DNA of 63,967 nt, filler included. It is 4 parts of 4 records of this genome, joined end to end, with 100 filler letters (N's around TTAATTAATTAA, not from the genome) between each part and the next. Parts side by side here need not be neighbours in the genome. Positions count along the whole stretch, not along the records: positions 34,678 to 53,721 come from SRR20825019_811; 3 more parts are not named here. The stretch is one strand, 5' to 3'. Below the pieces are notes generated by a model. It was not told the DNA's origin. It saw only the letters and a program-made list of their open reading frames with translations, and searched no databases. Of this stretch, positions 34,678-51,157 are shown piece by piece. A program made the translations under genes and the position numbers. How positions within the stretch are numbered: the first letter of the stretch is position 1; the number at the start of each line of letters is the position of its first letter.

Positions 34678-34706
34678 AGGCGCTCTCCCAGCTGAGCTAT
34701 AGCCCC
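34678..34706 (-). tRNA. tRNA-Ala, 5' part only (anticodon not visible)
   Basis: Reverse complement reads GGGGCTATAGCTCAGCTGGGAGAGCGCCT, the acceptor 5' strand and D-arm of bacterial tRNA-Ala. Confidence 0.88.
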
Positions 34707-34943: not shown

Positions 34944-35333
34944 TCAGCTGTCGTCGTCGTCATCCGACACGCCGATAATGCCGGAGACATCGTCGTCTTC
35001 GTCATCGTCGGCCTCAAGGAAGGTATCGTCGTCATCGTCATCGAGATCGACATCATCATCGTCGTCGTCGCCCGTAACATTGTCGGAGGGGCTGTCGTCG
35101 TCGGATGCCTCGATGGAGGCCAGTTCGACATCGCCCTCTTCGGCATCGACTTCCTTGACGTCGTTTTCCTCTTCCTCGGTTTCGACAACTGCGATCGAGG
35201 CGGTATCCTCGAAATAGGACAACGGCCAGGAAGCGCCCGAATAGGGCGAAACCACCGGGTCCTTGTTCAGGTCATAGAATTTCTTGCCCGTATCCGGGCA
35301 TGTTCTTTTGGTTCCGAGTTCCGCTTTCGCCAC
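34944..35333 (-). CDS. TIGR02300 / FYDLN_acid family protein
   Basis: GTG start after GAGAGG. MAKAELGTKRTCPDTGKKFYDLNKDPVVSPY followed by an acidic tail. Confidence 0.93.
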   Translation of the reverse strand: MAKAELGTKRTCPDTGKKFYDLNKDPVVSPYSGASWPLSYFEDTASIAVVETEEEENDVKEVDAEEGDVELASIEASDDDSPSDNVTGDDDDDDVDLDDDDDDTFLEADDDEDDDVSGIIGVSDDDDDS

Positions 35334-35544
35334 GATCGACCTCTCATGTTGCGGTTGAAGGCTGGCATCACCAGCGCCTGTGCGCTTTTGCATCAGGCGG
35401 TCCCTTATCGTCATGCCGTCCGTCTGTCAAAGGCTAAGTTCACCGTTTTTCCAGCCGCCGCGGAAGCCGGGCGGGATCGTCAATTTCGACGTTAACCATT
35501 TTTAAGAACCTTTTCTTAAATCCTGCCGGCTAGATGCTGTTTCC

Positions 35545-36135
35545 ATGTCTATTCGTCGTATCGCAACCCTCTTTGCGGTGATCTGCCTTGCCGCACTCGC
35601 GTCTTGCTCGACCACGGTCAGCAATGTCGGCAACAGCTGTGCGATCTTCGCCCAGAAAAACGGCATGTTCGAAAACTGGCAACGTGACGCGGAGAAAGCC
35701 TCGCGCGATTACGGGGTGCCGGTTTCGGTGCTGATGGCGACGATCTACGTCGAATCCTCCTTCGATTCCCACGCGCGGCCGCCGCGCAAGAAAATCCTGG
35801 GTTTCATTCCCGGTCCCCGGGCCTCCAGCGCACTCGGCTATTCGCAGGCGCTTGACGGCACCTGGGCGGAATATCAGTCCCGCAGCGGCCAGCGTGGCGC
35901 CAGCCGCACGGATTTTGGCGACGCCATCTATTTTGTCGCCTGGTATCACTATCAGAGCCATATCCGGAACGGCATCGCGCTCAACGATCCCTACAATCTC
36001 TACCTCGCCTATCATTCCGGCCACAGCGGCTATTCCCGTGGCGTGTGGAAAAGCCGGCCGGTAGCCAAGAGCGCCGCGGCGCGCGCCCAGAAGATGACAC
36101 AGATCTACGAGGCCCAGCTTCGGCGCTGCTCCTGA
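35545..36135 (+). CDS. Lipoprotein with SLT (lytic transglycosylase-like) domain
   Basis: Lipobox LASC. ATIYVESSF (catalytic Glu), SALGYSQA, LYLAYHSG. Confidence 0.85.
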   Translation: MSIRRIATLFAVICLAALASCSTTVSNVGNSCAIFAQKNGMFENWQRDAEKASRDYGVPVSVLMATIYVESSFDSHARPPRKKILGFIPGPRASSALGYSQALDGTWAEYQSRSGQRGASRTDFGDAIYFVAWYHYQSHIRNGIALNDPYNLYLAYHSGHSGYSRGVWKSRPVAKSAAARAQKMTQIYEAQLRRCS

Positions 36136-36136
36136 T

Positions 36137-36179
36137 TAAGGTCCGGCCCGCGTTTCATGGAATCGCGGGCCGGACCTTA
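36137..36179. terminator. 16-bp perfect hairpin between the convergent SLT and algL-like genes
   Basis: TAAGGTCCGGCCCGCG-N11-CGCGGGCCGGACCTTA. Confidence 0.75.
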
Positions 36180-36237
36180 TCTTCCTGTTATGCCGCATTT
36201 TCGCGGACGTCAGGCGTATCCGCCTGACTGCGAAATG

Positions 36238-37368
36238 CTACTTCCCGCCAGCAAAACATCCCGGCTGCATCGCCGGGTTGTTGCGATAAAGCAGGGTCAT
36301 GTCTCCCCCGAGCTTGGAATTGGAAAGCGGGCGCAGCGGCGCAAGCGTTCGGTCCAGATCGCCATCGCTCACGAGGCTGAGATAGGCCTCCAGCCAGGCA
36401 ATCGTGAACGGCTCCTGATTGGCAAGCCCCTGCGGGACCGATTGATGGACCCCGGCAATGTCGGCGACCTTCGAAGGGTCTTCGATACCCGCCAGCACGA
36501 AGCCGACCGCCTTTCTGATCACCGCCTCCTCGTCTGCGGTATAGCTGTAGTCATTGTGGCAGATCAGCGCGGCAGAGGCCGCAAGCGGCGCGAGCGCATG
36601 GAGTTGGTAATGCAGCGCATATTTTCCGCGGCGCATTTCATAGGGCATGCTGCCATCCTCGCGGACCGTCGCCAGCACGGCGCGATGACTTGCAAACGCC
36701 CAGTTGATGAAATCCTGGCTTTTGAGGATCAGCGCGATTTCCGTCACCGCATAGGCAGCCCATAGCCGGAGATTGCCGAGTTTCGCCTTTGGCGGGGCGT
36801 CATTGTCCCAGTAGGCGACCAGAAAATCGCCGTTCTTCTTAAGCCAGGCCTCGATCGCCGCCTTCTCGTCTGTGAGACCGTCGGCCTGATCGCGCACCTG
36901 ACGGTAGGCGCTGGCAATGCCGCCGACGCGGGCGGCGTAGGTCATCTTCGCGTTTTCGGTTTCCAGCCTGCCGAAGGCATCGGCCGCGGCCCAGTCATGG
37001 ATGCCGTTGACCACGCAGGCCGCATTGAAGGCGGCGATGCCGGGATTGGCGCGGGCATCATTGGCAAGGCCGGTGATCTGACGGATGAAGGTATCGGCGT
37101 CCTTCAGCGACGCATCCACCTCGGCGTCGCTCTCCTCATCGAGTTTCGAACGGTCGGCGCTGCTTTCGTCATAGCGGCTGCCATAATCGAGCGTGACGCT
37201 CGGCGGCGGAAATGCCGGACACGCCTCATCGCCATCCGCCGCGAAAGCAGGAGAGCCGGCGAGCGCAAGAAAGGCAGCCCCGGCCGCCAGCCGGCCGAAC
37301 TGGAGGAGGGATGGTCGCGGCGGTGAATAATCGGCCAAATCGCAGCCCTTTCGTTTGGTCATGTTCAA
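36238..37368 (-). CDS. algL: AlgL-like PL5 alginate lyase with divergent active-site motif
   Basis: Signal peptide, SRY motif, CVVNGIHDWAAADA, GNLRLWAA at the NNHSYWAA position, DGSMPYEMRRGKYALHYQLHALAPL, SKLGGD. Last gene of the alg operon. Confidence 0.78.
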   Translation of the reverse strand: MNMTKRKGCDLADYSPPRPSLLQFGRLAAGAAFLALAGSPAFAADGDEACPAFPPPSVTLDYGSRYDESSADRSKLDEESDAEVDASLKDADTFIRQITGLANDARANPGIAAFNAACVVNGIHDWAAADAFGRLETENAKMTYAARVGGIASAYRQVRDQADGLTDEKAAIEAWLKKNGDFLVAYWDNDAPPKAKLGNLRLWAAYAVTEIALILKSQDFINWAFASHRAVLATVREDGSMPYEMRRGKYALHYQLHALAPLAASAALICHNDYSYTADEEAVIRKAVGFVLAGIEDPSKVADIAGVHQSVPQGLANQEPFTIAWLEAYLSLVSDGDLDRTLAPLRPLSNSKLGGDMTLLYRNNPAMQPGCFAGGK

Positions 37369-40127
37369 TGCAGTTTGAGGCCGGAGAACAGGGTCCCGGC
37401 GGTTTCATTGCCCGCCGCGGCGGCAGCCTTCAGCCATTCCATGGCCTTGTCGGCCGAATGCTCGACGCCGGCGCCGAAGGCATAGGCCTGGGCAAGCAGC
37501 AGCATCGCCTCGGCATCGCCGGCGTTGGCGGCATTCGCAAGCCATTCCGTCGCTTCGCCCGCCTCATTTTCCGAGGCAGGGTCGCCGCGCAACGTCTTGG
37601 CGAGTTCGCGCATGGCCACAGGATCGCCGGCCTCGGCGGCCTTGCGATAGGCGGCCTTCATGTCGAAGGCCTCGCTGACCCTGTTTCTGACGGATTCGGG
37701 CGCGTATTTCAGCCGGTTGGCAAGACCGTGAAGCTCGGAAGGGGCGGCCTTCTCAAGCTCCTCCAGCAGAAGTTTCGCGTGCTCTTCTTCCTGGTAGAAC
37801 CGGCTGTCGGGATCGGAGTACCAGTCGAGCAGCCGGCGCGAGGCGGGATCGTAACCCTGGCCGTGGGCGGCTTCATATAGCTTGAAGGCCTCCTCGCGAT
37901 CGGCGATCGAGCCGAGCGTGGTGTAGATGTCGGCGAGCTTGACCTGCTGCCAGCCCTGCTCCGGCGAAAGCGCCAGGGCGACATCGAGCGCATTGTCGGC
38001 CTCGTCGGCTCGCCCGGCGTTCAGCGCGTACCGGGCCTTGCGGGCAAGGGCGTTCAGATCGCAGGACATGGCCGCCTTGGCGCGCCCATAGAAAAGCGCC
38101 CGGTCCTCGTCGCTTTCGGCACGGGTCGCGGCAAAAAGCAGGGCCTCGAAATCGCCATGGGCTGCGATATCCGAAAGCATGTCCTGCGGCGGGTCGTAAC
38201 GGCCCTTGCCGGCGGCGCGATAGGCATCATCGAGATGCCAGAGCGTGGAGCCCTTGATCTGCCCCCCGGCCTCTTCGACGAGCGCCGTGGCCTTGTCGAG
38301 GGAAGCGACATCATCGGTCGACGCGGTCATATGGATTTCGGCGAGCACGGCGGTGGCCGCGACATCGCCGGTGCTCGCAAGCGCTTCCAGCGCGGACAGA
38401 ACGCTGCCGCGCTCCTCGTCGGTCCCGGCCGCATGATAGGCGCCTTCAAGCACCGAAGCCTCGCCGCCTTCCTGCCCGCGCATCGCGCTGCGCCAATGCG
38501 CGACGATATCGTCGAACCGGTCGGGGTGCAGCCGCGCCAGAAGCGAGGTCAGGTCTCCAGCCGCCCCCGTGCTTCCGGACAGCGCAGCGCTCTGCAGGCG
38601 GGCGGTCGCCTCCGCATTGTCGGCGAGTGTGTCGGCGGTGATATCTTCCGGCAGTTGCGGCCAGTTATCGCGATCGAGATTTTTCCATTTCTCCCACTCG
38701 GCCGTTTGAGGGCCGTCGGGATTGGCGCACAGCAATGCGTTCTTCAACGCGTCCACGGCCGTGGACTTGCCTTCGGTGGCGATCAGTTGCTTGAGCAATT
38801 CGACGGCCTTCCGGCGGTCGGCGTCGTCGCCGTCGCGCAGGTAAAGCCGGGCAAGTTCGAGCTTGCCTGCGCTGTCGCCCCGCTCGGCAGCCGCTTCGAA
38901 CAGCCTCCGGGCCTCCTCCTGCCCCTCCCATGGTCCGCTGTCATCGAGGCTCATCGCGCCGAGGCGTGAAAACGCCCAGCCCGGCGCATCGGGAAAGCGC
39001 GCCAGCGCCACCAGCCTGTCGTGATATTTCTGCCGGTCCTCCGGCGTATCGAGCCCGCGCGCGGCGAGCAGGCGCGTGGCGCCGGCAAAGCCCTCGCGCT
39101 CACCGTCTTCCGCAAGCTGATCGTAGATCGCCATCGCCCGCTCCGGATCGGTCGGCACCAGCACGCCGTCCTCGTAGAGCTTCGCCATCTGCACCTTCGC
39201 CGGGACGATATCGGCGTCGAAGGCCTGCTGAAGATAGCGCAGCAGCCTGGTGTTGTCCTTTTCGATGCCTTCGCCGGAAAGATGGTAGCGCGCGGTCTGC
39301 CATGCGGACTGGCCATCGCCCAGATCGGCGGCGAAGCGATACCACGCTTCGGCAAGCACATGGTTCTGCGCGATCACCTCGCCGCTTTCAAATGCCCGCG
39401 CGATCCGCCGCACGCGTCCGCAAATCGCGTTGTCGAGATTGCCGAGCAGGGATGAAAAGCCGAGCGTGAAGGCCAGTTCGGGGTCCATATCCCAGCCCGG
39501 GACCTCTTCCCCCTTGCTGGTTTTCTCGGCCAGATACAGCACCGCGTCGGGATCGCCATTATAGGCGGCCTGGAGTTTGCGCTGGATGCCGCGGTCGATG
39601 TCCTGCGGCACCGCCTTGCCCTCCAGATAAAGGTCGGCGAGAAAGTTCACCGTGCCCGGCGTCGCGGCCGGCCCTATGGTTTCCAGCTCGGTGACGAAGC
39701 CGGTTGCCTTCAACTCGTCGAAACGCTGCGCCTCGACATAAAGCGCCACCACGTCGAGCAGATAGGCGGCCCTGCTGTAATAGGGATCTTCCTGGCGGCG
39801 CAGATCGTAGGCGGACTTGACGGTGTCGAAATACTTGTCCGCATCGATATTGCGGAGCCGCATCAGCTCGCGGTCGAGGTCGCGGTATTCGACGCCACGC
39901 GGCAGCTGCTGGCCGTCCCAGTTCGACCATTGCAGTTCCAGCGCGTCGTTGGACTTGCGGTCGGCGCACACCTTCGCCGCCTCGATTTCGGGCGGACGGA
40001 AATCGATGACGGGCTGCTGCGCCATCGCCGTCGACGTTCCGGCGGCAGAAACCGCAAATGCCAACAGAAATGACCGGGCACGACCCCGCCCACAAACCCG
40101 CAATCCGGCAATGCTAAACCGCTTCAT
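37365..40127 (-). CDS. Large exported Sel1-like repeat protein, about 920 aa
   Basis: Signal peptide ending ...TAMA. Many Sel1 repeats (AEAWYRFAADLGD; AMLLLAQAYAFGAGVEHSADKAMEWLKAAAAAGN). ATGA overlaps with both neighbours. Confidence 0.85.
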   Translation of the reverse strand: MKRFSIAGLRVCGRGRARSFLLAFAVSAAGTSTAMAQQPVIDFRPPEIEAAKVCADRKSNDALELQWSNWDGQQLPRGVEYRDLDRELMRLRNIDADKYFDTVKSAYDLRRQEDPYYSRAAYLLDVVALYVEAQRFDELKATGFVTELETIGPAATPGTVNFLADLYLEGKAVPQDIDRGIQRKLQAAYNGDPDAVLYLAEKTSKGEEVPGWDMDPELAFTLGFSSLLGNLDNAICGRVRRIARAFESGEVIAQNHVLAEAWYRFAADLGDGQSAWQTARYHLSGEGIEKDNTRLLRYLQQAFDADIVPAKVQMAKLYEDGVLVPTDPERAMAIYDQLAEDGEREGFAGATRLLAARGLDTPEDRQKYHDRLVALARFPDAPGWAFSRLGAMSLDDSGPWEGQEEARRLFEAAAERGDSAGKLELARLYLRDGDDADRRKAVELLKQLIATEGKSTAVDALKNALLCANPDGPQTAEWEKWKNLDRDNWPQLPEDITADTLADNAEATARLQSAALSGSTGAAGDLTSLLARLHPDRFDDIVAHWRSAMRGQEGGEASVLEGAYHAAGTDEERGSVLSALEALASTGDVAATAVLAEIHMTASTDDVASLDKATALVEEAGGQIKGSTLWHLDDAYRAAGKGRYDPPQDMLSDIAAHGDFEALLFAATRAESDEDRALFYGRAKAAMSCDLNALARKARYALNAGRADEADNALDVALALSPEQGWQQVKLADIYTTLGSIADREEAFKLYEAAHGQGYDPASRRLLDWYSDPDSRFYQEEEHAKLLLEELEKAAPSELHGLANRLKYAPESVRNRVSEAFDMKAAYRKAAEAGDPVAMRELAKTLRGDPASENEAGEATEWLANAANAGDAEAMLLLAQAYAFGAGVEHSADKAMEWLKAAAAAGNETAGTLFSGLKLH

Positions 40128-41176
40128 TCGCTTCCTTTCGGCGCCTCGCCGCACCCTTCAGCACCGCAATCGCCGGCAGCGCTTGCCGCAAGCATCTCCC
40201 ATGGCTGCGGGCCGTAGCTTGCGAGATTGCTTGCCGGCGGCACCTCCCATATCAGGAACAGCGGCGGTCTGGACTGGAAATCGCCCGACCGGAGATAATC
40301 GGTCACGGCCTTGAACGGGCTGCCCGAAACGCTCGCCCGGTTATCGACATCCATGCCCGAGAGCTGTTTCAGAAACCCGTCGAAATGGCTCTGGCCATCG
40401 GCCGAGAACCGCGACCCGACAAGCACCACCGGCGCCGGCGCGTCGGCCCCCAGAATATTGAACGGCCGATCGGCGGCGAAGGCTTCCTCGCCCACGGTCT
40501 CGTAGCGGGTCTCCGTCACCGCCGGCAGGCTCTCGCTGCAATGGGCCTGGATCGCCTCGCGCAGGTCCGATCTGCGGGTGTAATCCTCGCCCCGCGTGGT
40601 GGTGAATGTCATCAGATTGGCCTTGTGCGACTGTGGCATCGCGTTGAGCTTTTCGGCGATCGCCGTGGCGGCAAGGCGCGCGCCATCGCTCGTCCACAAC
40701 GGATCGGCTTTCTGGAAGGCAGGACTGTCATCGGACGTCTTCGCCCGCATCGGCGTCAGCAGGTCGACCGCGACCACGCCTGCATCATCCAGCCGCTTGA
40801 CAGCTTCCTGATAGATTTCGGTATTGACGGTATCCTGATAACCGTAAAGCCAGGCCGATTGCGGCACCTTGTCGGCAAGCACCTGACTGCGCGTTGGAAC
40901 GGGCACAAAGACAAGAATGGTCCCGTGCGCCTTCAGGAGCCCAGAAAACGCCGAGATGCTTTCCACCAGCGCCGGATCGGCGACCGACTGCATCGCGATA
41001 TCGTCCATCACGGTAAAGAAAAACCCGTCCTTGCCTTCAAGCGCCTGTGGCTCGCCCTTGTCCGCCAGATTGACGCAACCGTAGAGCGATTGCGCCTCTT
41101 CGGCATGCGCGATGCCGCCACCAAGGCCGGCCGCGATACACAATGCCGCGATCCTTGTCACACCAACCATGCTCAT
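40124..41176 (-). CDS. AlgX/AlgJ-like SGNH-family periplasmic protein, catalytic residues degenerate
   Basis: EGKDGFFF, GTILVFVPVPTR, DPLWTSDGARLAA, VVLVGSRFS, FDGFLKQ, PPLFLIWE. Confidence 0.82.
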   Translation of the reverse strand: MSMVGVTRIAALCIAAGLGGGIAHAEEAQSLYGCVNLADKGEPQALEGKDGFFFTVMDDIAMQSVADPALVESISAFSGLLKAHGTILVFVPVPTRSQVLADKVPQSAWLYGYQDTVNTEIYQEAVKRLDDAGVVAVDLLTPMRAKTSDDSPAFQKADPLWTSDGARLAATAIAEKLNAMPQSHKANLMTFTTTRGEDYTRRSDLREAIQAHCSESLPAVTETRYETVGEEAFAADRPFNILGADAPAPVVLVGSRFSADGQSHFDGFLKQLSGMDVDNRASVSGSPFKAVTDYLRSGDFQSRPPLFLIWEVPPASNLASYGPQPWEMLAASAAGDCGAEGCGEAPKGSE

Positions 41177-41913
41177 CCTCCCCCATCTTGAACCTCGGGC
41201 TCCGGGAATGCCCGCAGCAGGTTTTCCGCCGCGGTGCGTGTTCCCAGATCCGAGCTTTGCTGCGCCATCCGCAGATAAGCCCGCACCGCCGCGGCATCCT
41301 CGCTGGCAAGCGGTGCGCCGGATGCAATCATCATGGCCATCTGCAGGGCCAGGTCTGCATCGATGGATTGCTGATTGGCCGCCGCCAGCAAAAGCGCCCT
41401 CGCCTTTTTGGGCTGTGCCCCGAACGGGTGGCCCTGCATATAAAGGCGCGCCAGCGCTATGGCCGACGCCGGATCGCCAGCCGCCGCCTGTCTGGCGAGC
41501 GCGTTTTCGATATGGGCAAGCCGCACCGGCGAAATCTCGCTGGACCGGTCCGACAGGATATCGAGCAGGGCCGGTATGGCGTAAGCGCGGCCATCATCCA
41601 CCGCGATCGCGAGATACTGCGCGGCCTTGCCGTTCAGGTCGGGCCTGTTCATCGCGAGAAGCCGCTGGGCCAGGCGATAAGCGGCCAGCCCGTCGCCAAC
41701 ATCTGCGAGAATCTGAAGCTCCGTGATGGTCACCGGCTCGTCGGCGACGATCCGCGCCCGGATATCCTTGAGCCGCGGCGCGCTGTCATAGACCGAGGCT
41801 ACACGCTGGATCGTCACGGGCCGCCCCTCAAACCGCAGCGGCATGCCGGCGCAAGCAATCGCGGGTAGCAACACAAACGCGGCGGCAACCGCATGGGCCT
41901 TCGCGAACGCCAT
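41173..41913 (-). CDS. Small exported Sel1/TPR-like helical protein (AlgK-like candidate), 246 aa
   Basis: True start is ATG 41913, 1 nt after the algG-like stop. Signal peptide. LADVGDGLAAYRLA and AAAGDPASAIALARLYMQG. Confidence 0.7.
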   Translation of the reverse strand: MAFAKAHAVAAAFVLLPAIACAGMPLRFEGRPVTIQRVASVYDSAPRLKDIRARIVADEPVTITELQILADVGDGLAAYRLAQRLLAMNRPDLNGKAAQYLAIAVDDGRAYAIPALLDILSDRSSEISPVRLAHIENALARQAAAGDPASAIALARLYMQGHPFGAQPKKARALLLAAANQQSIDADLALQMAMMIASGAPLASEDAAAVRAYLRMAQQSSDLGTRTAAENLLRAFPEPEVQDGGG

Positions 41914-41914
41914 C

Positions 41915-43516
41915 TCACTCGCCCTCCCCGCGATCGCAGCCGGTATAATCGGCCAGGCTGAACTGACCGCGATTGCCGCGAAACAGCGACGGCGCGGCGG
42001 AGCCGGCGGCGGATATCGCAAAACCGGTGTCGGCTCCATCCGCAAGGCCGCGCTTGAAGGTGAGATAGCGCGGCGTTTCATATTGCAGCGCGCCGGCAAA
42101 CAGCACCGGCAACTGGCTGGAGAGATCGTTTTGCCGCAACAGCAGGCGCGAGAAGCGTTCCGCCGAAATACCGGAAACATTGGCGAGGAAGATATTGTCC
42201 GTGATCTCGGTCTCGTCATCGGGAGAGATCGCATCATTGACGGCGATGCCCGCGCCCTGATTGCGGGCGAGCAGATTGCCGGAAATCCGCACGCCGAGGC
42301 TCTGGACGACCCGAATGCCGTCGGCGCGATTGCGAAGCGTGGCGTTGGCGAAAATATCGACACAGGCCCCGCCCGCGACCGAAATGCCTTCAACGCCGTT
42401 TGCCAGAAGAACATTGCCCGTGATCGTCGCATGGCCGACGCCGTCGCGCGCGAAAATGCCGCGACCGGCATTTTCCGCCATCACATTTCCGCTCACCAGC
42501 GTGCTCTTTCCGCCGATCATCAGCAGGCCGTGCTGGCCGCTCGCAACGATCAGATTGTCGGCAATGACGCCGTGATCAACCCGCTCGAGCCTGAGCCCGA
42601 TGCCGCGCGCGCTGTCGATCCGGTTCCCGGAGAAGCGAAAATCGGCAAGGCCGGTCGCTTCCACCGAGCGGATATTCTTCAGCACATTGCCGGAAACAAG
42701 GCCGCTGCTGCGGTTTCCGGCGTAACGGCTTGAGCCAAAGCCGACGCCGCTCAACAACGGCTGGCCGTCATAGCCGAGATCTGACAGACGGCTGTTTGCG
42801 ATCTCCGCCCGGCCGCCGCGCACTGTCAGGATAAAAGGATGGAAATCGACAATTCGCGCGGCTGCGGCAGAGCCGACGACCTCGGCGTTACGGATCGTCA
42901 GCAGGCCCTCATTGATGATGAAGGCGCCCCGCTCCGTCGCCATTTCCAGCCGGTCGCCCTCGCCCATCGACAGCGCGGCGTTTTTGGAAATGACGAGCGG
43001 TATCGTGAGACGATAGCTATGGTCCGCCGCCGCAAGCAGGCCGCCCTGGCCTCTATCCGCCAGCGCCCCGGAAAGTCCGGCAAGGGTGAAGTCGCCGCCT
43101 TTCAGCAGCAGCGCCTGCCCGCCGGAGGGCGATGCCGCCTCCATCAGTTCGCGGTGACCGAGATTGCCGATCTCCAGCGCGACCTGCTGCAGGATCGGCG
43201 CCAGCAGGGCCTTGTCGAATTCGGCAGGGGCAATCTCGCTCCCGCCGGCGGCAACAGAGCCGGCCACGGCCTCCGATTGTTGCGGCAGAGCCTCAGGCAC
43301 GACCTCGACGCCCGCCTCCTCCATCAACGTCCCGGCGGCGGAAAGCGGCGGCCCGATGCCCGCATCGTCGTTCTTCAACGTCTCAAGCAGACGATCGGCA
43401 TTGCGGTTGATCTGTTCCAGGCGTTCGTGATCGAGCGCTTCGGCGGAGGGCGCAAAGGCGGCCAGCAGCAGCAGCAACGCTGCGCAGCATCCGGAAAAGC
43501 GCCCGCTGCGGATCAT
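41915..43516 (-). CDS. AlgG-like right-handed parallel beta-helix (CASH/NosD) protein lacking the DPHD motif
   Basis: Signal peptide. AlgG-type segments YRLTIPLVIS, ERGAFIINEGLL, FHPFIL, SRLSDLGY, and repeated (I/V)xGNxxxxN turns. Confidence 0.78.
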   Translation of the reverse strand: MIRSGRFSGCCAALLLLLAAFAPSAEALDHERLEQINRNADRLLETLKNDDAGIGPPLSAAGTLMEEAGVEVVPEALPQQSEAVAGSVAAGGSEIAPAEFDKALLAPILQQVALEIGNLGHRELMEAASPSGGQALLLKGGDFTLAGLSGALADRGQGGLLAAADHSYRLTIPLVISKNAALSMGEGDRLEMATERGAFIINEGLLTIRNAEVVGSAAAARIVDFHPFILTVRGGRAEIANSRLSDLGYDGQPLLSGVGFGSSRYAGNRSSGLVSGNVLKNIRSVEATGLADFRFSGNRIDSARGIGLRLERVDHGVIADNLIVASGQHGLLMIGGKSTLVSGNVMAENAGRGIFARDGVGHATITGNVLLANGVEGISVAGGACVDIFANATLRNRADGIRVVQSLGVRISGNLLARNQGAGIAVNDAISPDDETEITDNIFLANVSGISAERFSRLLLRQNDLSSQLPVLFAGALQYETPRYLTFKRGLADGADTGFAISAAGSAAPSLFRGNRGQFSLADYTGCDRGEGE

Positions 43517-44919
43517 TTCACCTCGCCTCCGGAGGCAAGGATTGGGGCATCATCCAGTTCGGCGGCGTCATACTGCAGTTCGATCAGCGTCGCGGTGAAC
43601 TCTCCGTGATTGCGCAACACGCAGCCAAGGCCTGCGGGAATGGCGACGGTATCTCCGGCTTGCTTGCCGCGCCAATTGGCTCCCTGTTCCAATTGCAGGC
43701 TTCCGGCACAGATCGTCAGCACCCGGTTCCGGGCCTCCTCCACCGCTATCGTCAGCGTCGCGCCCGGTATGATCTCGTGTTCGGCGAGACGATAACCGGG
43801 GCCCGCCTTCAGCGGCGTTCCCGAATGCGCCCATTTCGGCTTTGTGATCGCGGACCTGCCCTTGCGTTCCTTGAGCGCGCTCAGCACCAGCGGCACGTCC
43901 TGGGTACGGTCGAGCGAGGCCACCAGCAGGGCGTCCTCGGTATCGATGATGGCGAGATTGTCGATACCGATGGTCGCGACCAGCTTGCCGTCCTGCGCGC
44001 GGATGTAGGAACCGGCGGTATCCACCGAGACGACATCGCCGCTCGCGACATTGCCGGCGCCATCCTTGGTCCCGATCTCATAAAGCGAGCGCCAGCTTCC
44101 GACATCGTTCCACGCGATATCGGCCGGCACCATCAGCACCCGGTCGCTGTGTTCGAAGACGGTGCTTTCGGTTGCCGCGCCATGCGCTTTGCGGAAGTGG
44201 CGGTCATCGAGAACGGTGCGGCCCGAAGCCCTTGCCGCCCCCTCCACCGCCGCGCGCACCGCCTGCTCCGTTTCGGGATCGAGACGCTGATACTCGGCGA
44301 TCAGCACATCGGCGCGGAACAGGCTGACGCCCGACGCCCAATAGGCATTGCCTTCGGCGATCAGCTTTTCAGCCATCTCACGGGGCGGTTTCTCGATGAA
44401 ATGGGAAACATCGCGCGCGCCGGAGAAGCGCGTACTCGGCCCGTCATCGACAATATAGCCATAGCCGGTTTCGGCGTAAGCCGGGTGGATTCCGAAAAGC
44501 ACGATGCGCCCGTTCTCGGCGGCCTCGCGCATCGAAAGCACCACCGCGCCGAAATCGCCCTCGATCAGATGGTCCGACGGCAACACCGCGATCAGCGCGC
44601 CGGGATCACGGGTTTCAATGGCAAGGGCTGCTGCAAGCACCGCAGGGCCGGTGTGGCGCGAACTTTCCTCGATCATCAGTTCGCCCGCGCGACCGACCGC
44701 GTGAAGTTGCGCGCGCACCAGCGCTTCATAGCGGCTGTTCACGCTAACATAGGGATCGTGAAAGCCGGGACCGGAATGGCGTTCGACGGTCGCCTGAAAA
44801 AAGCTCGGCGAACCGTGTCCGGCCACGCGGTGAAACTGCTTCGGCGCTTCCTCGCGCGACAACGGCCAGAGCCGCATGCCGACACCGCCGCACATGATGA
44901 GCGGGTAGATCGACCTCAT
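43513..44919 (-). CDS. algA: Mannose-1-phosphate guanylyltransferase (AlgA/ManC) with degenerate cupin
   Basis: CGGVGMRLWPLSREEAPKQF, LPSDH, ETGYGYI, FIEKP, WNDVGSW. ATG 44919 overlaps the alg44 stop. Confidence 0.88.
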   Translation of the reverse strand: MRSIYPLIMCGGVGMRLWPLSREEAPKQFHRVAGHGSPSFFQATVERHSGPGFHDPYVSVNSRYEALVRAQLHAVGRAGELMIEESSRHTGPAVLAAALAIETRDPGALIAVLPSDHLIEGDFGAVVLSMREAAENGRIVLFGIHPAYAETGYGYIVDDGPSTRFSGARDVSHFIEKPPREMAEKLIAEGNAYWASGVSLFRADVLIAEYQRLDPETEQAVRAAVEGAARASGRTVLDDRHFRKAHGAATESTVFEHSDRVLMVPADIAWNDVGSWRSLYEIGTKDGAGNVASGDVVSVDTAGSYIRAQDGKLVATIGIDNLAIIDTEDALLVASLDRTQDVPLVLSALKERKGRSAITKPKWAHSGTPLKAGPGYRLAEHEIIPGATLTIAVEEARNRVLTICAGSLQLEQGANWRGKQAGDTVAIPAGLGCVLRNHGEFTATLIELQYDAAELDDAPILASGGEVK

Positions 44920-46097
44920 CGGCTGGCCTCCGTCGCGGCCCGTGCGTTGCCGATCAGCGGCCATGCCTTGGCCCGCTCGCTCACGGCCTTCGTCGCGGTG
45001 AGGCGGGCAAACCGGGTCCGTATCCGCTCCAGGACGTTCGCATAGGGCTTGCTGGTTACCGTGAGCGCAACCGTCTTGCCAATGTCGGCTGCGGTGAGCA
45101 CATCATCCGCGGCGCTGAACGTCACCAGCGCCGTCGTGCCCGAAACGCCGTCCTCCGCCTTGACGTCCCTGACGGTCAGCGGCAGATCGCCGCCGTTGGG
45201 TAGCGATGCATGCGCCTCGGCGCCGAACAGCAGCAATTTCGCCAGAGCGTCCGGCATCACGACCTTGATCGTCGGCCCGGAATCGTCGGTTCGGACATAG
45301 GCGATCGGCGTTCCGGGCAGGACGGTCGCGCCGACCGCGCCGCTTTCGGTGAGCACGATCTTGCAATCGCAGGGATTGGAGAAGTTCAGCATGCCGCCGC
45401 GCGCCGATTGCAGCGAGAACACCACGTCGCCCTCGCCGGCATTCTGGTCGACATAGGCGATCTGTCCGGCCTCCGGCGCGGTCAGCGGCAGGCCTGCCGG
45501 CGTAACGGTCGCAAGGCCCGGCACCCGGTGAACGAAGATATGATAATGGATGGTGTAAAGCGTGAGCGCGATCAGCCCGAGCGTCAGGGCCGTGACCAGT
45601 CCCGCGCCCGCCAGTCGCCGCATCCGCTCGCGGAAGCTCTTGCGCGGCGGAGGCTCCGCCACCGATTTCTGCCGCGCTTCGGGCGGTACGCGCAGCAATT
45701 CGTTGATCTGCACCAGATCGCCCGCCAGATAGGCATTCATCATATAACGCAGATGCGGCAGATGGGGGCCGGTGGGATTGAGGAACACCAGCTTGTAAGC
45801 GCCGCCACTGCGGGATTCCAGTTCGGCGCTGACCTCGATCGGCAGCACCACGGAATAGCCCTCGAACTGGAAGCTGAACCGGGCAATCATGCGATGGCCG
45901 GAGATATCCTCCCCCGTCCAGCCGCCGGCATAGGCCGCGACGAGCGAAATCCCAACACCTTCCAGCTCGCGGCCGTCGATAAACACCGAAAACGGCATCC
46001 AGATCGAGGGATGATCGCTGTCATGACCGTTGTCCGGCAGTTCAGCCACAGGCTCCTCGTATCCGGTCTCGGGGGTGCGATGGTGTTCCATAAGCAT
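44916..46097 (-). CDS. alg44: Alg44-like co-polymerase (degenerate PilZ-like domain, TM helix, membrane-fusion domain)
   Basis: Directly after alg8. LRYMMNAYLAGDLVQINELL linker, single TM helix, conserved NPCDC. Confidence 0.8.
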   Translation of the reverse strand: MLMEHHRTPETGYEEPVAELPDNGHDSDHPSIWMPFSVFIDGRELEGVGISLVAAYAGGWTGEDISGHRMIARFSFQFEGYSVVLPIEVSAELESRSGGAYKLVFLNPTGPHLPHLRYMMNAYLAGDLVQINELLRVPPEARQKSVAEPPPRKSFRERMRRLAGAGLVTALTLGLIALTLYTIHYHIFVHRVPGLATVTPAGLPLTAPEAGQIAYVDQNAGEGDVVFSLQSARGGMLNFSNPCDCKIVLTESGAVGATVLPGTPIAYVRTDDSGPTIKVVMPDALAKLLLFGAEAHASLPNGGDLPLTVRDVKAEDGVSGTTALVTFSAADDVLTAADIGKTVALTVTSKPYANVLERIRTRFARLTATKAVSERAKAWPLIGNARAATEASR

Positions 46098-46106
46098 GCG
46101 AAGCTC

Positions 46107-47579
46107 CTAAGCGCCCGAAATATCGACGAACCAGATCATGCCCAGTATCAGCCATGCTACTGCGAGCGCGTGAAGATACAAAGAAAATCCGTCTGACCCG
46201 AGAAAGCCCTTGCTCTGCCGGACCGTACCGGTTGCGATGCTCTGGCGGGTCCATTTCTGTCGATCGAGGCGAAACAATACGTAGGTCTTGACCAGCGCCC
46301 CGCCGATCTGGCCGAAATACAGCAGAAACGGATAGGTAACCGGAAACCCGCCGGCCCGGAAGGTCGAGATCATCGTACACATCACGTAGCGCGACGCCAT
46401 GACCCAGGCGATATAGGCGAGAAAAACATAAGGGTTGAAGACATAGGCCGCCAGCAGCATGCCGCAGGGCCCGGCAAGCGTGGTCCACATCGACATGCGC
46501 TGATCCAGGATCGACCACCATGTGAAATAGCCGATCCGGCTCGCCGGGAGCGCCAGTGCCCGGTTGCTGGTCCTCAGCGTGTTGCCGAACCAGCGCCGCA
46601 TCAGCACGATCGCCGAATCGTAAAAGCTGTCGCGCGGCTGGGTTTCGACGGATACGGTTTTCACATCGGGCAGATAGCCCATCTTGTAACCGTGCCTCAA
46701 AAGCCAGAACCAGGTCGACTTGTCGTCTCCGGTCAGGAAGTTCACCCGGCCGAAGCGCCAGTGGTCGATGAAATCATGCTGCACGCCGCTGATGAAGCCG
46801 GGCTGGGTGGCAAGGTCGCCGCGAAATACCGACATGCGGCCGGTCAGCGTCAGAACGCGTTCGCTGAGCCCCATCGAGCTCATCATGAGCTGGCGCTGCG
46901 CAAAGCGCAGGTGGAACCAGTCCTGAAAAAGCCGGCCGCCGGTCGCATCGGAAACCTCGTCGGAGGTGAGCGCGCCCATCTGGTCGTCGGTAAAGAAAGG
47001 GGCCGACTTCGCCACAAGGGTTTGCGGCACCCGCGTGTCGCCATCGACCAGGAAGATCATGTCGCGGCGGGTCGGATTGTGACGGGCGATGGTGCGCAGC
47101 GATGTCGCCAGCGCATCACGTTTGCCGGTGCCGGCGATCCGGTCGAAGATCAGCGACACCGTGCCGCTGCGGCTTGCATCGGAGCCGGCGAACACGGATT
47201 TGATCAGGCGGATGTCGCTTGCATCGACGACGGAGGCGACAATCGTCGCCCCGCCCTCGGAGTTTCGCGCCGCCTCGAAGATCGAGCGATAGACCGGGGC
47301 GGTGATAGCGGGATCGATCTTGTAGGTGGTCACCAGAAAGAAGGCATGCGCCCGATAGGGCAGCGCCGCATAGAGCGCCTCCGCCTGCCTGCGACGACGG
47401 GGAAACGCGACGTGCAGATAGTATTTTGCGCGGATGAAATTCAAAATCCCCCACGAATAGCGCCAGATGCCGAGAGCCCCGATCGCCAGCGCCAGTTCGC
47501 CGGACTTGCCGACGACGTTGGGCGCGGCAAACAGCGCGATATTCACGGCCGTACAAATGTAGAGGATATGATAAAGCAT
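46107..47579 (-). CDS. alg8: Alg8 GT2 mannuronan polymerase
   Basis: IGALGIWRYSW, GTGKRDALA, VDGDT, RVLTLTGRMSVFR, FLTGDDKSTWF, LMRRWFGN, DRQKWTRQ. Confidence 0.93.
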   Translation of the reverse strand: MLYHILYICTAVNIALFAAPNVVGKSGELALAIGALGIWRYSWGILNFIRAKYYLHVAFPRRRRQAEALYAALPYRAHAFFLVTTYKIDPAITAPVYRSIFEAARNSEGGATIVASVVDASDIRLIKSVFAGSDASRSGTVSLIFDRIAGTGKRDALATSLRTIARHNPTRRDMIFLVDGDTRVPQTLVAKSAPFFTDDQMGALTSDEVSDATGGRLFQDWFHLRFAQRQLMMSSMGLSERVLTLTGRMSVFRGDLATQPGFISGVQHDFIDHWRFGRVNFLTGDDKSTWFWLLRHGYKMGYLPDVKTVSVETQPRDSFYDSAIVLMRRWFGNTLRTSNRALALPASRIGYFTWWSILDQRMSMWTTLAGPCGMLLAAYVFNPYVFLAYIAWVMASRYVMCTMISTFRAGGFPVTYPFLLYFGQIGGALVKTYVLFRLDRQKWTRQSIATGTVRQSKGFLGSDGFSLYLHALAVAWLILGMIWFVDISGA

Positions 47580-47586
47580 CCCGTTC

Positions 47587-48906
47587 CTACCAGCATATGC
47601 CCTCATAGGCATCGCGCGTGACCACGCCCGGCGCGATACGGGCGAGATCGACCATCGGCTTGTCGCCGATCAGCGCCGAGAGCGGCTCCACGGCCTCCCT
47701 GTAGCGATGGCCGACAACGATGATATCTGACAACGCTATCAAATCCGCCAGATCGGCGACGAGCCTTGCGGGCAGATCCGCGATCCTGTCATTGCCGCGC
47801 CCTGCCCCGCTCATGCCCTCGTCATAGGCCGCCTGGACGGACGGGTCGTAAATCTTCACCTCATGGCCGCTGTCGAGAAGCCGGCTCGCAAGGGCCGCAA
47901 GCGGGCTTTCGCGCAGATCGTCCGTGCCCGGCTTGAAGCTGATGCCGACCATGCCGACCGTGCGGCCTTCAAACTTGTTCACCAGCGCCTCGGCGCGGGC
48001 GATCTGGTTCTCGTTGGCGGCAAGTACGCCTTCGAGCAACGGGGCCGCCACATCATTGGAATTGGCGAGAAAACGCAGCGCCCGCAGATCCTTGGGCAGG
48101 CACGACCCGCCGAAGGAGAAACCCGGACGCAGAAAATAGGGCGACATCGCGACCTGGTCGTCCGAGCACAGTATCTTCATCACCGCCTGGCCGTCGACGC
48201 CGACGCTCTTTGCGATGTTGCCGATCTCGTTGGCGAAGGTGATTTTGGTCGCGCGCCAGCTATTGCTGGTGTATTTGATCATCTCCGCGGTCTTCATGTC
48301 GACGGCGTGATGTTCGCCCGGCAGCCCCGCGTTGAAGCCGCGCAGCACCGCCATGGTCGTGTCGTCGATCGCGCCGTAGACGATCAGGCACGGATCGAAG
48401 TAATCCGCGACCGCGGTGCCTTCCCGCAGAAATTCCGGGAAATAACCGACGCCGAAATCGGTCCCGGCCTTCAACCCCGAGGCGCGCTCGAGCTCAGGCA
48501 CGCAGACGGTTTCCATCGTGCCCGGCACCAGCGTGGATCGGACGATGACGCTGTGGAGCCCCTCCTTCCTGGAAAGCGCGACGCCAATGGAGCGGCACAG
48601 AGCCGTAACATAGGAAAGCCCGATCGCGCCGGAGGCCTCGCTCGGCGTGCCGACGCAGACGATCGAGACATCCGTGCCCAAAATGGCCTCGGCGATATCG
48701 GTGGTCGCCGACAGCCTGCCGGCATCGTGATTGGCTGAGACCAGTTCGTCGAGACGCTCCTCGACGATCGGCGTGCGCCCGGCATTGATGGCGGCAACCT
48801 TGTCGGGATCGATATCGACCGCAACCACCTGATGACCCTGCTCGGCGAGGCAGGCCGCCGAAACGGTGCCGGTATAGCCGATGCCAAACACGCTTACTCG
48901 TACCAA
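47587..48906 (-). CDS. algD: GDP-mannose 6-dehydrogenase
   Basis: TTG start after AAGGAGG. VFGIGYTG, CVGTPS, PEFLREG, GFSFGGSCLPKD, FKPGTDDLRESP, and the AlgD-type C-terminus EGICW. Confidence 0.92.
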   Translation of the reverse strand: MVRVSVFGIGYTGTVSAACLAEQGHQVVAVDIDPDKVAAINAGRTPIVEERLDELVSANHDAGRLSATTDIAEAILGTDVSIVCVGTPSEASGAIGLSYVTALCRSIGVALSRKEGLHSVIVRSTLVPGTMETVCVPELERASGLKAGTDFGVGYFPEFLREGTAVADYFDPCLIVYGAIDDTTMAVLRGFNAGLPGEHHAVDMKTAEMIKYTSNSWRATKITFANEIGNIAKSVGVDGQAVMKILCSDDQVAMSPYFLRPGFSFGGSCLPKDLRALRFLANSNDVAAPLLEGVLAANENQIARAEALVNKFEGRTVGMVGISFKPGTDDLRESPLAALASRLLDSGHEVKIYDPSVQAAYDEGMSGAGRGNDRIADLPARLVADLADLIALSDIIVVGHRYREAVEPLSALIGDKPMVDLARIAPGVVTRDAYEGICW

Positions 48907-48965
48907 ATGACCCTCCTTTGGGTCTGAACAACCGGAAAGCCAATCAGCGCCCGGAAACCACACTC

Positions 48966-48981
48966 TGCCAGTTTCATGCCA
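48966..48981 (-). promoter_or_regulatory. Candidate sigma-54 (-24/-12) promoter, proximal
   Basis: TGGCATGAAACTGGCA has GG-N10-GC spacing, 60 nt upstream of algD. Confidence 0.5.
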
Positions 48982-49016
48982 ACCGGATCGCCGGAACGGT
49001 TGCGCTTCTTCCGAAT

Positions 49017-49032
49017 TGCAAGCCATCGGCCA
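49017..49032 (-). promoter_or_regulatory. Candidate sigma-54 (-24/-12) promoter, distal
   Basis: TGGCCGATGGCTTGCA has GG-N10-GC spacing with TTGCA. Confidence 0.5.
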
Positions 49033-49162
49033 GGTTGGCAACCTGGTTGGAGCCTTTCAAAAGAAGCCCACAGCGAAGTTGTCAATAGCTTGTAGCCGCA
49101 ATTCCTAAAGATACCGTATTCATGGTTGTTTTTTAACCTCGCCCGGTTTTCTACGCGTAGTA

Positions 49163-50932
49163 TCAGTGATTGTGGCGCGGCGGTCGGCGGGCGATGTCGC
49201 GGAAGTCGTCAGCGCCGTCGATCGTGCCGCCATCGGAGAGCTGCGTCACGGTCTGGCGGTAAAGCCGCTGCCAGGGCGTCGCATCGGCGGGCACCTCCGG
49301 CAGTCCCTCCGTCTTTCGTCGCCCGATCTCGGCGTCATCGACCAGCATGTCGCAGCGCCCCTGATTGAAATCGATGCGGATCATGTCGCCATCGCGCAAA
49401 AAGGCGAGCCCGCCGCCTGCCGCACTTTCCGGCGAGGCATTGAGGATGGAGGGGCTGTCGGCCGTGCCGGACTGCCGCCCGTCGCCGATGGTCGGCAGGC
49501 TGGTGATGCCCTTTCTGATAAGATGGTCCGGCGGCTGCATGTTGACCACTTCGGCAGAGCCCGGCCAGCCGAGCGGCCCGGCCCCGCGGATCACCAGAAT
49601 GGTGCGCTCGTCTATGTCGAGCGCCGGATCGTTGATGCGCGCATGATAGTCCTCCGAGCCGTCGAAGATCACGGCCTTGCCCGTAAACACACCCTCATGG
49701 CCGGGTTCCATCAGATATCTCTGCCGAAACGCGTCAGAAATCACGCTCATCTTCATGATCGCGAAATCGAACAGATTGCCCTTCATCACCAGAAAGCCCG
49801 CGCGCTCCTGCATCGGATTGTCGTAGGCCAGGATCACCTCGCGATCGACCGCCTCGCGGCCCTTGAGATTGTCGGCCATGGTTACGCCGGTGACCGTCGG
49901 CGCATCGCCATCGAGCCTGCCGGCCCTGAGCAGTTCCCACATGATCGCGGGCACGCCGCCGGCGCGATGGAACCGTTCGCCCAGATACTTGCCGGCCGGC
50001 TGGACATTGGCGAGCAGCGGGATGTCATACCCAAAACCCTGCCAGTCCTCCGGCTTCAGGTCGATGCCGGCGTGGCGGGCGATTGCGGCCAGATGCGGCT
50101 GGGCGTTGGTCGAGCCGCCGATGGCTGCGTTGACGCGGATGGCGTTGAGGAAGGCCGAGCGGGTCAGGATATCGAGCGGACGGATATCCTCGTTTACAAG
50201 CTCCACCGCGCGGCGGCCGGTGCGATAGCCCATCTGGCCGCGCTCGCGATAGGCAGCGGGGATCGCCGCCGAGCCGGTCAGCGACATGCCGAGCGCCTCG
50301 GCCAGCGCATTCATCGTCGAGGCCGTGCCCATCGTGTTGCAATGGCCGACCGAGGGTGCGGAATCGAGCGCCGTTTCCAGGAATTCTTCCCGGGTGATCT
50401 CGCCGGCGGCGAGCTTGCGCCGCGACCGCCAGATCACCGTGCCGGAGCCTACAAGCTCGCCCTCGTGCCAGCCGTCGAGCATCGGACCGCCGGAATAGAC
50501 GATCGCCGGAATATTCACAGTTGCCGCCGCCATCAGCGCCGAAGGCGTGGTCTTGTCGCAGCCTGTCGTCAGCACCACGCCGTCGAGCGGATAGCCGTAC
50601 AGGATTTCGACCAGACCGAGATAGGCAAGATTGCGATCAAGGGCCGCCGTCGGGCGCTTGCAGTTTTCAAACAGCGGATGCGAGGGAAATTCGATCGGAA
50701 TACCGCCGGCATCGCGAATGCCGTCGCGCACCCGGCGCGCGAGATCGAGGTGGTGGCGGTTGCAGGGATTGATGTCGCTGCCGCTCTGGGCAATGCCGAT
50801 GATCGGCCTGCCGGAGCGCAGCTCTTCCGGCGTGGTGCCGTAGTTCATGAACCGCTCCAGATAGAGCGCGGTCATGTCCGCATGGTCCGGATTGTCGAAC
50901 CAGTCTTGTGAACGCAGGCGGCGATGCGGCAT
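49163..50932 (-). CDS. IlvD/Edd-family sugar-acid dehydratase (xylonate dehydratase XylD-like)
   Basis: RSQDWFDNPDHADMTALYLERFMNYG, PCN, GCDKTTP, CNTMGTASTMN, GDGRQSGT. Confidence 0.92.
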   Translation of the reverse strand: MPHRRLRSQDWFDNPDHADMTALYLERFMNYGTTPEELRSGRPIIGIAQSGSDINPCNRHHLDLARRVRDGIRDAGGIPIEFPSHPLFENCKRPTAALDRNLAYLGLVEILYGYPLDGVVLTTGCDKTTPSALMAAATVNIPAIVYSGGPMLDGWHEGELVGSGTVIWRSRRKLAAGEITREEFLETALDSAPSVGHCNTMGTASTMNALAEALGMSLTGSAAIPAAYRERGQMGYRTGRRAVELVNEDIRPLDILTRSAFLNAIRVNAAIGGSTNAQPHLAAIARHAGIDLKPEDWQGFGYDIPLLANVQPAGKYLGERFHRAGGVPAIMWELLRAGRLDGDAPTVTGVTMADNLKGREAVDREVILAYDNPMQERAGFLVMKGNLFDFAIMKMSVISDAFRQRYLMEPGHEGVFTGKAVIFDGSEDYHARINDPALDIDERTILVIRGAGPLGWPGSAEVVNMQPPDHLIRKGITSLPTIGDGRQSGTADSPSILNASPESAAGGGLAFLRDGDMIRIDFNQGRCDMLVDDAEIGRRKTEGLPEVPADATPWQRLYRQTVTQLSDGGTIDGADDFRDIARRPPRHNH

Positions 50933-51125: not shown

Positions 51126-51157
51126 TATGGAGTATCAATTTCAACCGGAGCAGAAAA

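Follow-up and report, generated by a model that had tools for sequence, protein, structure and literature searches.

The DNA described here is a window of 63,967 nucleotides, which consists of four contigs joined by artificial spacers. Each spacer is made up of 44 N, TTAATTAATTAA and another 44 N, and the spacers are found at 20659-20758, 34578-34677 and 53722-53821. Any reading across them is void. The third piece (34678-53721) is a 19-kb contig from Martelella, with around 62-66% GC. It carries an alginate-like gene cluster at 36238-48906, here called the alg cluster, with nine genes that are all on the minus strand. In the direction of transcription these are:

47587..48906, minus strand: algD, GDP-mannose 6-dehydrogenase, with three UDPG_MGDP_dh domains (PF03721, PF00984 and PF03720)
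46107..47579, minus strand: alg8, polymannuronate synthase of glycosyltransferase family 2 (GT2; PF13641)
44916..46097, minus strand: alg44-like co-polymerase, with a PilZ-fold domain, a transmembrane helix and a membrane-fusion-like periplasmic domain
43513..44919, minus strand: manC, mannose-1-phosphate guanylyltransferase with a degenerate C-terminal cupin (PF00483, E 4e-41; PF22640)
41915..43516, minus strand: AlgG-like periplasmic right-handed beta-helix protein (PF13229, NosD; E 1e-11 to AlgG 4nk6)
41173..41913, minus strand: small Sel1-repeat protein of 246 amino acids with a signal-like N-terminus (assigned with an orthologue profile)
40124..41176, minus strand: AlgX-like SGNH-type protein of 350 amino acids (PF16822, E 1.4e-45)
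37365..40127, minus strand: Sel1/TPR solenoid of 920 amino acids, a putative AlgK-like scaffold (Sel1 repeats)
36238..37362, minus strand: AlgL-like protein of polysaccharide lyase family 5 (PL5; PF05426; E 5.5e-26 to AlgL 4ozw)

An initial annotation of this DNA had proposed nine co-oriented genes in this order, and the minus-strand open reading frames (ORFs), together with their domain and structure matches, confirm it. The same annotation called the ORFs full length. All nine are indeed intact, in the window and in five other Martelella loci. The genes were also said to be mostly ATGA-coupled, which is true for half of the junctions. ATGA overlaps occur at four of the eight (alg44/manC, manC/AlgG-like, small Sel1/AlgX-like and AlgX-like/920-residue Sel1), and gaps of 1-9 nt separate the genes at the remaining four. 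For example, the small Sel1 gene starts with the ATG at 41913, 1 nt past the AlgG-like stop. The alg8 ORF opens at 47612, but translation probably starts with the ATG at 47579. By eye, signal-like N-termini can be recognised in all five periplasmic proteins.

Proteins of the alg cluster

AlgD matches the GDP-mannose 6-dehydrogenase of P. aeruginosa (1mfz/1mv8) over its full length with 425 bits, where the best-scoring UDP-glucose dehydrogenase reaches only 221 bits. It retains the cysteine motif GGSCLPKD. Over 424 residues, Alg8 and its Pseudomonas counterpart share 45% identity. DGD, TGDDKS and LMRRW are aligned and kept, so the earlier claim that both enzymes have intact catalytic motifs holds. 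Within Martelella, identity of this Alg8 is 94% to Martelella mediterranea IOP_24, and 76-91% to four others.

The guanylyltransferase side of ManC is present, with NTP_transferase (PF00483) and the ManC beta-helix domain. The cupin domain is without the metal ligands (His/Glu) of phosphomannose isomerase (PMI), as QMHHHRAEHW has become AVEEARNRVL. Against TIGR01479 the protein scores 326 bits, under the cut-off of 373. Outside the cluster, an intact MannoseP_isomer paralogue is found in all four of the related Martelella genomes searched, one in each, so the lost function of the PMI cupin can be supplied from elsewhere.

The AlphaFold2 (AF2) model of the Alg44-like protein has a predicted local distance difference test (pLDDT) value of 81. 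At the N-terminus it has a beta-barrel, which superposes on the PilZ domain of Alg44 (4rt1_B) with a template modelling (TM) score of 0.80 and a root-mean-square deviation of 2.6 Å, and which is followed by a long transmembrane helix. The beta-rich periplasmic C-terminal domain resembles membrane-fusion proteins, of which BesA is the best match, along with ZneB, CusB and MexA. This domain has no long helical hairpin in the model, and BesA is hairpin-less as well. Taken together this is the architecture of Alg44, complete except for the residues that bind the ligand. The RxxxR position reads SDHPS, and DxSxxG is absent at the aligned place. In terms of sequence, the match to the Alg44 PilZ domain reaches just E 0.49, and PF07238 (PilZ) finds no match in the protein. 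A PilZ search of the four Martelella genomes gave one match in each, to an ORF of around 735 amino acids that is not Alg44-like.

The initial annotation had proposed that synthesis is independent of cyclic di-GMP (c-di-GMP). This stands insofar as the canonical binding residues of Alg44 are missing, but the PilZ fold itself is kept. Given the loss of the c-di-GMP-binding arginines and of DxSxxG, c-di-GMP would not work the gate through the canonical PilZ site.

In the AlgG-like protein, the DPHD motif of the epimerase aligns to GLRL (compared with 4nk6), and the score against NF038177 is 53.9 bits where the cut-off is 700. Within the wider family described below, the conserved residues of this protein are Gly, Asn, Pro and Phe, two invariant Cys, and one Asp (in 63 of 75 proteins). 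This pattern is that of a structural beta-helix rather than of an active site. In Pseudomonas, the AlgG and AlgX proteins have structural roles: beyond their activities, they are needed for polymer formation.

On its own, the small Sel1 protein has no Pfam match. A profile built from 30 of its orthologues reaches E 1e-16 with Sel1 proteins, and just E 0.19 with AlgK (7ula_B). For the 920-residue Sel1 protein, the AF2 model (pLDDT 86.9) is all helix from residue 60 onwards and contains no strands, so there is no porin domain or beta-barrel in it. The best fold matches are again Sel1 proteins. Its profile does find AlgK 7ula_B, at E 7e-9, though with a far lower score than for generic Sel1 proteins, and NF038194 (AlgK) matches at E 2.7e-7 with 29.6 bits, where the cut-off is 700.

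The AlgX-like protein was aligned to AlgJ (4o8v) and AlgX (4knc/7ula), and the place of Ser269 was located by counting in the 4knc alignment. The motif D-x-H-W has become DPLW, where Asp is kept and His is replaced by Leu. The catalytic Ser of G-T-S has become Arg (GSR). According to the accessible part of PMC4148444, D174, H176 and S269 of AlgX are required for acetylation, and AlgX consists of an SGNH domain and a carbohydrate-binding module (CBM). DPLW and GSRFS are present in all six Martelella copies. Past the WExP motif these copies have 42 residues, where other members of the family have 133-139. This means that the C-terminal CBM, of about 95 residues, has been lost, and only in Martelella. 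A complex prediction for the AlgX-like and small Sel1 proteins, run without controls, scored 0.00.

In the AlgL-like protein, NNHSYW reads GNLRLW, so that His202 is now Leu. The equivalents of Asn, Arg249 and Tyr256 are kept. Family-wide, the groove residues N199, W203, R247 (=R249), Y254 (=Y256) and H257 are conserved. The last of these sits beside the catalytic Tyr and is both invariant in the family and specific to it. The accessible part of PMC8829089 describes Y256 and R249 as essential in AlgL of P. aeruginosa, and the H202A variant as inactive in vitro and wild-type-like in vivo. As both of these essential residues have been kept here, the AlgL-like protein may still cleave.

All of the motif changes that the initial annotation had reported, in Alg44, the AlgA cupin (ManC), AlgG, AlgX and AlgL, are confirmed by these alignments.

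A twelve-gene operon family and its reduced form

The initial annotation had suggested a synteny and motif survey of alg8 neighbourhoods. This was performed on 142 loci in all, and it re-centred the reading of the cluster on a larger family. A scan with Alg8 delivered 62 loci, and a scan with the alignment of AlgX-like proteins supplied the best 80 of 176 relatives. The single AlgL-like protein as a query returned just 3 close loci. ORFs were labelled by comparison with the proteins of the window and with the reference operon of Pseudomonas avellanae (L080).

The architectures in the Alg8 scan are those of Martelella, of Rhodobacteraceae with algI/J/F, of Microvirga/Rhizobium, and a few others. 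Among the loci centred on AlgX-like genes, the dominant order has twelve genes: algD-alg8-alg44-manC-AlgG-like-algI-algJ-small Sel1-AlgX-like-algF-large Sel1-AlgL-like. It spans Rhodobacterales, Rhizobiaceae, Devosiaceae (Devosia), Roseibium and Cohaesibacter, and its carriers include Yoonia, Loktanella, Cypionkella and Rhizobium. Seven loci seemingly without algF turn out to have a divergent AlgF-like ORF at the place of algF. The gene order of the window is that of the family minus algI, algJ and algF.

In one Cypionkella metagenome-assembled genome (MAG; locus L149), algI is spread over three ORFs in succession (I-I-I), in an operon that is otherwise full and has an intact AlgX triad. Either the assembly is at fault here or the gene is in the process of breaking.

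Four of the altered motifs are fixed throughout the family. AlgL-like proteins have N-L-R instead of N-H-S in 77 of 77 cases, with the Arg and Tyr kept in all. DPHD is absent from all 75 AlgG-like proteins, so the earlier claim that there is no epimerase motif applies well beyond the window. The RxxxR of Alg44 is absent in 71 of 71, where a conserved x-[E/D]-H-P-x is found instead (one row is all gaps), and the His cluster of the cupin is lacking in all 74 ManC proteins. The window shares all four of these states. On an Alg8 tree the family forms one clade of 72 of the 81 rows, with a support of 100 in the Shimodaira-Hasegawa-like approximate likelihood ratio test (SH-aLRT). The window lies inside this clade, as sister to the operons of Roseibium and Cohaesibacter.

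Because these four motif states are fixed family-wide, it is the whole family that is the distinct system, and the locus in the window is a reduced derivative of it. The initial annotation had read the altered Alg44, AlgG-like, AlgL-like and ManC motifs as degenerate, which is not supported in that form. Its idea of a distinct system survives for the twelve-gene family, most of which has algI/J/F, and not for the window locus by itself. Overall its interpretation is partly supported, and correct along its main line. The family is a widespread, conserved and apparently uncharacterised variant of the alginate system.

Selection on the nine genes was estimated from the ratio of nonsynonymous to synonymous substitution rates (dN/dS), versus the closest relative, with dS at 0.39-0.59:

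alg8: 0.08
algD: 0.12
920-residue Sel1: 0.14
AlgL-like: 0.15
AlgX-like: 0.16
alg44: 0.16
manC: 0.18
AlgG-like: 0.24
small Sel1: 0.26
ilvD (neighbouring gene, for comparison): 0.07

All nine genes are under purifying selection. This was another of the checks suggested by the initial annotation, and it finds genes that are not decaying. Five catalytic or regulatory motifs altered within one operon could in themselves point to a silent locus in neutral decay, with the changes as early pseudogenisation. This explanation is largely refuted, and we give it next to no credence. The nine ORFs stay intact in the window and in five Martelella loci, down to 45-77% amino-acid identity. In addition, dN/dS is 0.08-0.26 at a dS of around 0.4-0.6, translational coupling is kept, and the same motif states are fixed in at least 70 operons.

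The reduced order (D-8-44-A-g-s-x-S-l, as in the window) exists only in Martelella (the window and five loci), in two Oceaniglobus species and in a Rhodobacteraceae MAG (L014). All five other Martelella loci share the order from ilvD and algD through to the AlgL-like gene. Over the 80 rows of AlgX-like proteins, His and Ser are lost in nine of the nine that come from reduced clusters. At loci with both algI and algJ, DFHW and GTS are present in 68 of 68. Three rows were left unscored: L131 and L163, which are cut loci, and L128.

The reduced clusters fall into two clades, each supported on its own (SH-aLRT 100), one being Martelella and the other the Oceaniglobus type inside the Rhodobacterales. 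Since these are nested in different orders on supported branches, two changes are forced, and with full operons around both of them, a loss is the simpler direction of change. The substitutions also differ between the clades. Martelella has Leu and Arg (DPLW/GSR), the other clade Arg with Glu or Ala (DHRW or DYRW, with GTE, GTA or GSE). The loss of algI/J/F and the loss of the AlgX His and Ser thus arose twice, and always together.

In both lineages AlgX has been kept under purifying selection with a dead site. This is comparative evidence that its structural role is separable from its enzymatic one. The twice-evolved, selectively maintained pseudo-AlgX is the most informative feature of this locus. 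It also gives strong support to one part of the initial suggestion that the cluster uses pseudoenzyme scaffolds. The AlgL-like protein, which keeps its Tyr and Arg, fits that suggestion less well.

Several points weigh against these readings and those of the next section. The two cut loci L131 and L163 have an intact AlgX triad. So has L128, a 9.6-kb MAG contig with manC, small Sel1, AlgX-like, algF and large Sel1 genes and no algI/J; the same MAG carries a full cluster (L136) on another contig. The Alg8 tree is a quick one (LG+G4), with SH-aLRT as its only support. The surveyed loci are not independent, as there are several strains or species per genus, and the events themselves number two. 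Gene labels were assigned by BLASTP (E<=1e-5, two reference sets) to ORFs taken from the first start codon, and motifs were read from MAFFT columns. The absence of algE and algI rests on four related Martelella genomes (Alg8 identity 76-94%), some of which are drafts. Finally, the absence of canonical residues is no proof of inactivity, and the groove of the AlgL-like protein is highly conserved, including His257.

As a separate observation, the second partial copy at L128 has no AlgG-like gene either.

Likely product and surroundings of the cluster

The initial annotation had noted that there is no porin or MBOAT gene in the cluster, and this is correct. No AlgE porin is found in the cluster or anywhere on the contig. 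A genome-wide search for algE, algI and active paralogues, which had been suggested as well, found none in the four Martelella genomes, with the exception of the intact PMI paralogue. PF13372 (Alginate_exp) and PF03062 (MBOAT) were each found in none of the four, with a positive Pseudomonas control for both. PF16822 (ALGX domain) and NF038177 (AlgG) each matched one gene per genome, and this was the cluster's own.

These searches bear on whether canonical algE/G/X or algI/J/F genes elsewhere complete the pathway in trans, in which case the product would be ordinary alginate, acetylated and epimerised. The contig leaves some room for this. The initial annotation stated that both flanks are visible, but the cluster sits on a 19-kb contig between spacers, so what can be seen is limited to short contig ends of 1.5 kb downstream and 4.8 kb upstream. 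The counts for the four profiles speak against completion in trans, and AlgE is also missing from all five Rhodobacteraceae genomes with a full operon that were searched. We regard it as very improbable. In other alphaproteobacterial genomes AlgE can be found, with two of the five searched having it.

The region is probably the Martelella form of a conserved synthase-dependent polyuronate operon, from which the acetylation genes have been deleted, and which would make a non-acetylated, homopolymeric mannuronan. In this scheme ManC, as a guanylyltransferase only, and AlgD would make GDP-mannuronate, with the PMI step coming from the paralogue elsewhere. Alg8 and its Alg44-like partner would then polymerise the sugar and pass the chain through the inner membrane. 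Strong homology underlies these steps; the periplasmic ones that follow we infer. The beta-helix protein, the two Sel1 solenoids and the AlgX relic would guide and protect the chain. Their role would be mostly structural, with no epimerising or acetylating. The AlgL-like protein, with Leu for His and with Tyr and Arg kept, would probably clear stray polymer at a low rate.

A plain polymannuronate would not be the product if the altered proteins are still enzymes that work through other residues, the AlgL-like protein as a lyase and the AlgG- and AlgX-like proteins in non-canonical ways. The AlgL-like protein speaks for this, since it keeps the equivalents of N199, R247, Y254 and W203 and has the invariant His257. 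The H202A variant of P. aeruginosa AlgL, which behaves like the wild type in vivo in what is available of PMC8829089, helps too, as does the purifying selection on all these genes. The other two proteins speak against it. The conserved ionisable residues of the AlgG-like protein are limited to that one Asp (63 of 75) and the two Cys. The His and Ser of the AlgX-like protein disappeared exactly with algI/J/F, twice, and the MBOAT protein that would donate the acetyl group is missing from all four Martelella genomes. Overall we find it unlikely.

The lack of AlgE in this family raises the question of how the polymer crosses the outer membrane. It might not do so: the polymer could stay in the envelope as periplasmic or cell-bound material, for example for osmoprotection or attachment, instead of being a secreted exopolysaccharide, and no porin would then be needed. 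AlgE was found in none of the four Martelella and none of the five Rhodobacteraceae genomes, and the 920-residue Sel1 protein has no barrel. The genes flanking the surveyed loci include no pore-capable one that is conserved across genera; the largest group of flanking genes covers 14 loci from one lineage. Export systems however typically have long TPR/Sel1 scaffolds and a lyase-like protein in the periplasm, and an unrelated outer-membrane channel could take the place of AlgE. Periplasmic build-up of alginate is also harmful in P. aeruginosa, according to the accessible part of PMC8829089. Retention in the envelope is a quite improbable explanation.

There is also a bolder form of the preferred mannuronan reading, in which the Alphaproteobacteria have a widespread polymannuronate machine that is different in kind. 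It would have no c-di-GMP gate, no epimerase and no AlgE, and the Sel1 proteins and the beta-helix would form a new conduit across the periplasm to an exit in the outer membrane. We consider this doubtful, though worth keeping in mind. If true, Martelella and Oceaniglobus are natural experiments in which AlgX is needed structurally without acetylation, and in Martelella even without the CBM. The family is also a likely source of pure, non-acetylated polymannuronate.

Downstream of the cluster lie a lytic transglycosylase gene on the opposite strand, a gene for a FYDLN_acid protein, and then the end of the contig. Upstream there are an IlvD-family dehydratase, an ORF without assignment and a DUF1206 gene. 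The transglycosylase gene is:

35545-36135, plus strand: SLT_4 lytic transglycosylase, tail-to-tail with the AlgL-like gene

A search of the whole contig with Rfam at E<=1 found two chance-level matches only, and no riboswitch upstream of algD. A scan for promoters and terminators gave no signal above that of shuffled sequences. By eye, the start of the contig (34678-34710) resembles the last part of a minus-strand tRNA gene; ARAGORN made no call there. The end of a tRNA gene is a usual spot for an assembly break.

The first two pieces of the window (1-34577) hold eukaryote-type genes with alternating GC. These include:

1224-2780: Utp12/WD40
8432-11536: ORF of 1034 amino acids with ankyrin and ion-transport (TRP-like) domains
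11533-12978: jacalin
14947-15930: HlyIII
27630-28556: cyclin

The last two pieces are bacterial. Gene transfer, with the eukaryote-like first half physically linked to the bacterial cluster, is ruled out, because these are separate contigs joined by spacers. The Martelella contigs probably come from a bacterium living with, or contaminating, a eukaryote-like organism. The fourth piece has, in a row at 54766-58660, a PAS histidine kinase, a REC-HD_5 (HD-GYP-like) protein and a REC-HDOD protein. This trio is a possible cyclic-nucleotide signalling module. As it is on another contig, no link to the alg cluster is claimed.

Comparison with known systems

Knowledge of bacterial alginate rests nearly entirely on Pseudomonas and Azotobacter. 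Their operon has the order algD-alg8-alg44-algK-algE-algG-algX-algL-algI-algJ-algF-algA, for which the P. avellanae copy is the reference here. At its core, the system in the window would work as the Pseudomonas machine does. What the window shares with it is the presence, in one operon, of AlgD, Alg8, the Alg44 architecture, an SGNH protein of the AlgX/J type, an AlgL-type PL5 protein, an AlgG-type beta-helix protein, Sel1/TPR proteins and a ManC-type enzyme. Unlike Pseudomonas, the cluster in the window is without AlgE and AlgI/J/F, and its gene order differs. Two Sel1 proteins, of 246 and 920 amino acids, are found where AlgK would be expected. Also gone are the RxxxR and DxSxxG of Alg44, the DPHD of AlgG, the His, Ser and CBM of AlgX, the His202 of AlgL and the cupin ligands of ManC.

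Bundalovic-Torma et al. 2020 (PMC7112194; accessible part), in a survey of 1733 genomes, describe divergent alginate operons of environmental bacteria that have lost algKE or modification loci, with alg44 and algX showing additional divergence. The atypical operons in that part of the paper come with no account of the twelve-gene family, of its motif states, or of AlgX inactivation tied to the loss of algIJF. The rest of the literature searched, as far as its accessible parts go, likewise does not describe the family, the fixed motif states or the way in which algIJF and the AlgX triad are lost together. Figure S5 of PMC7112194 lies outside the accessible part and may show related operons.

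Dinoroseobacter shibae has an 'alginate gene cluster' of around ten genes, Dshi_1895-Dshi_1904, which the accessible part of PMC9426580 reports as transcribed and differentially regulated, without analysing the genes. As a Rhodobacteraceae cluster annotated for alginate, it shows that clusters of this kind are recognised and expressed in the group, and it may or may not belong to the family described here. In the accessible part of PMC4149021, alginate appears only as a growth test.

The Microvirga/Rhizobium type has the order algD-alg8-alg44-algA-AlgG fusion (1250 amino acids)-algL, and shares the algD-alg8-alg44-manC core with the window. Here too AlgE is mostly absent, from three of the four genomes searched. 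Unlike the window, it keeps D[PAS]HD and the NNH of AlgL, and has no AlgX. Microvirga also keeps the RQHPR of Alg44 with DxSxGG, plus the histidines of the cupin. On the Alg8 tree this type falls outside the 72-row clade of the window.

Two side observations concern this type. In Microvirga, Rhizobium and related genomes (L015-L048 and others, for example L015:14081-17815), the AlgG-like fusions are 1000-1370 amino acids long, with around 700 extra residues, and AlgI/J/F are not there. Microvirga sp. VF16 (L083) has a match to an AlgE-type porin at G012:C3:977540-978697, with E 8e-76.

The twelve-gene operon defines a family without three presumed core parts of the alginate system, namely the c-di-GMP switch, the epimerase motif and AlgE, in many marine and soil Alphaproteobacteria. 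Martelella shares with it the order, orthologues of all nine genes, the four motif states and the absence of AlgE (in the five genomes searched). Unlike Martelella, the twelve-gene operons have algI/J/F, and an AlgX-like protein with the DFHW/GTS triad and the CBM.

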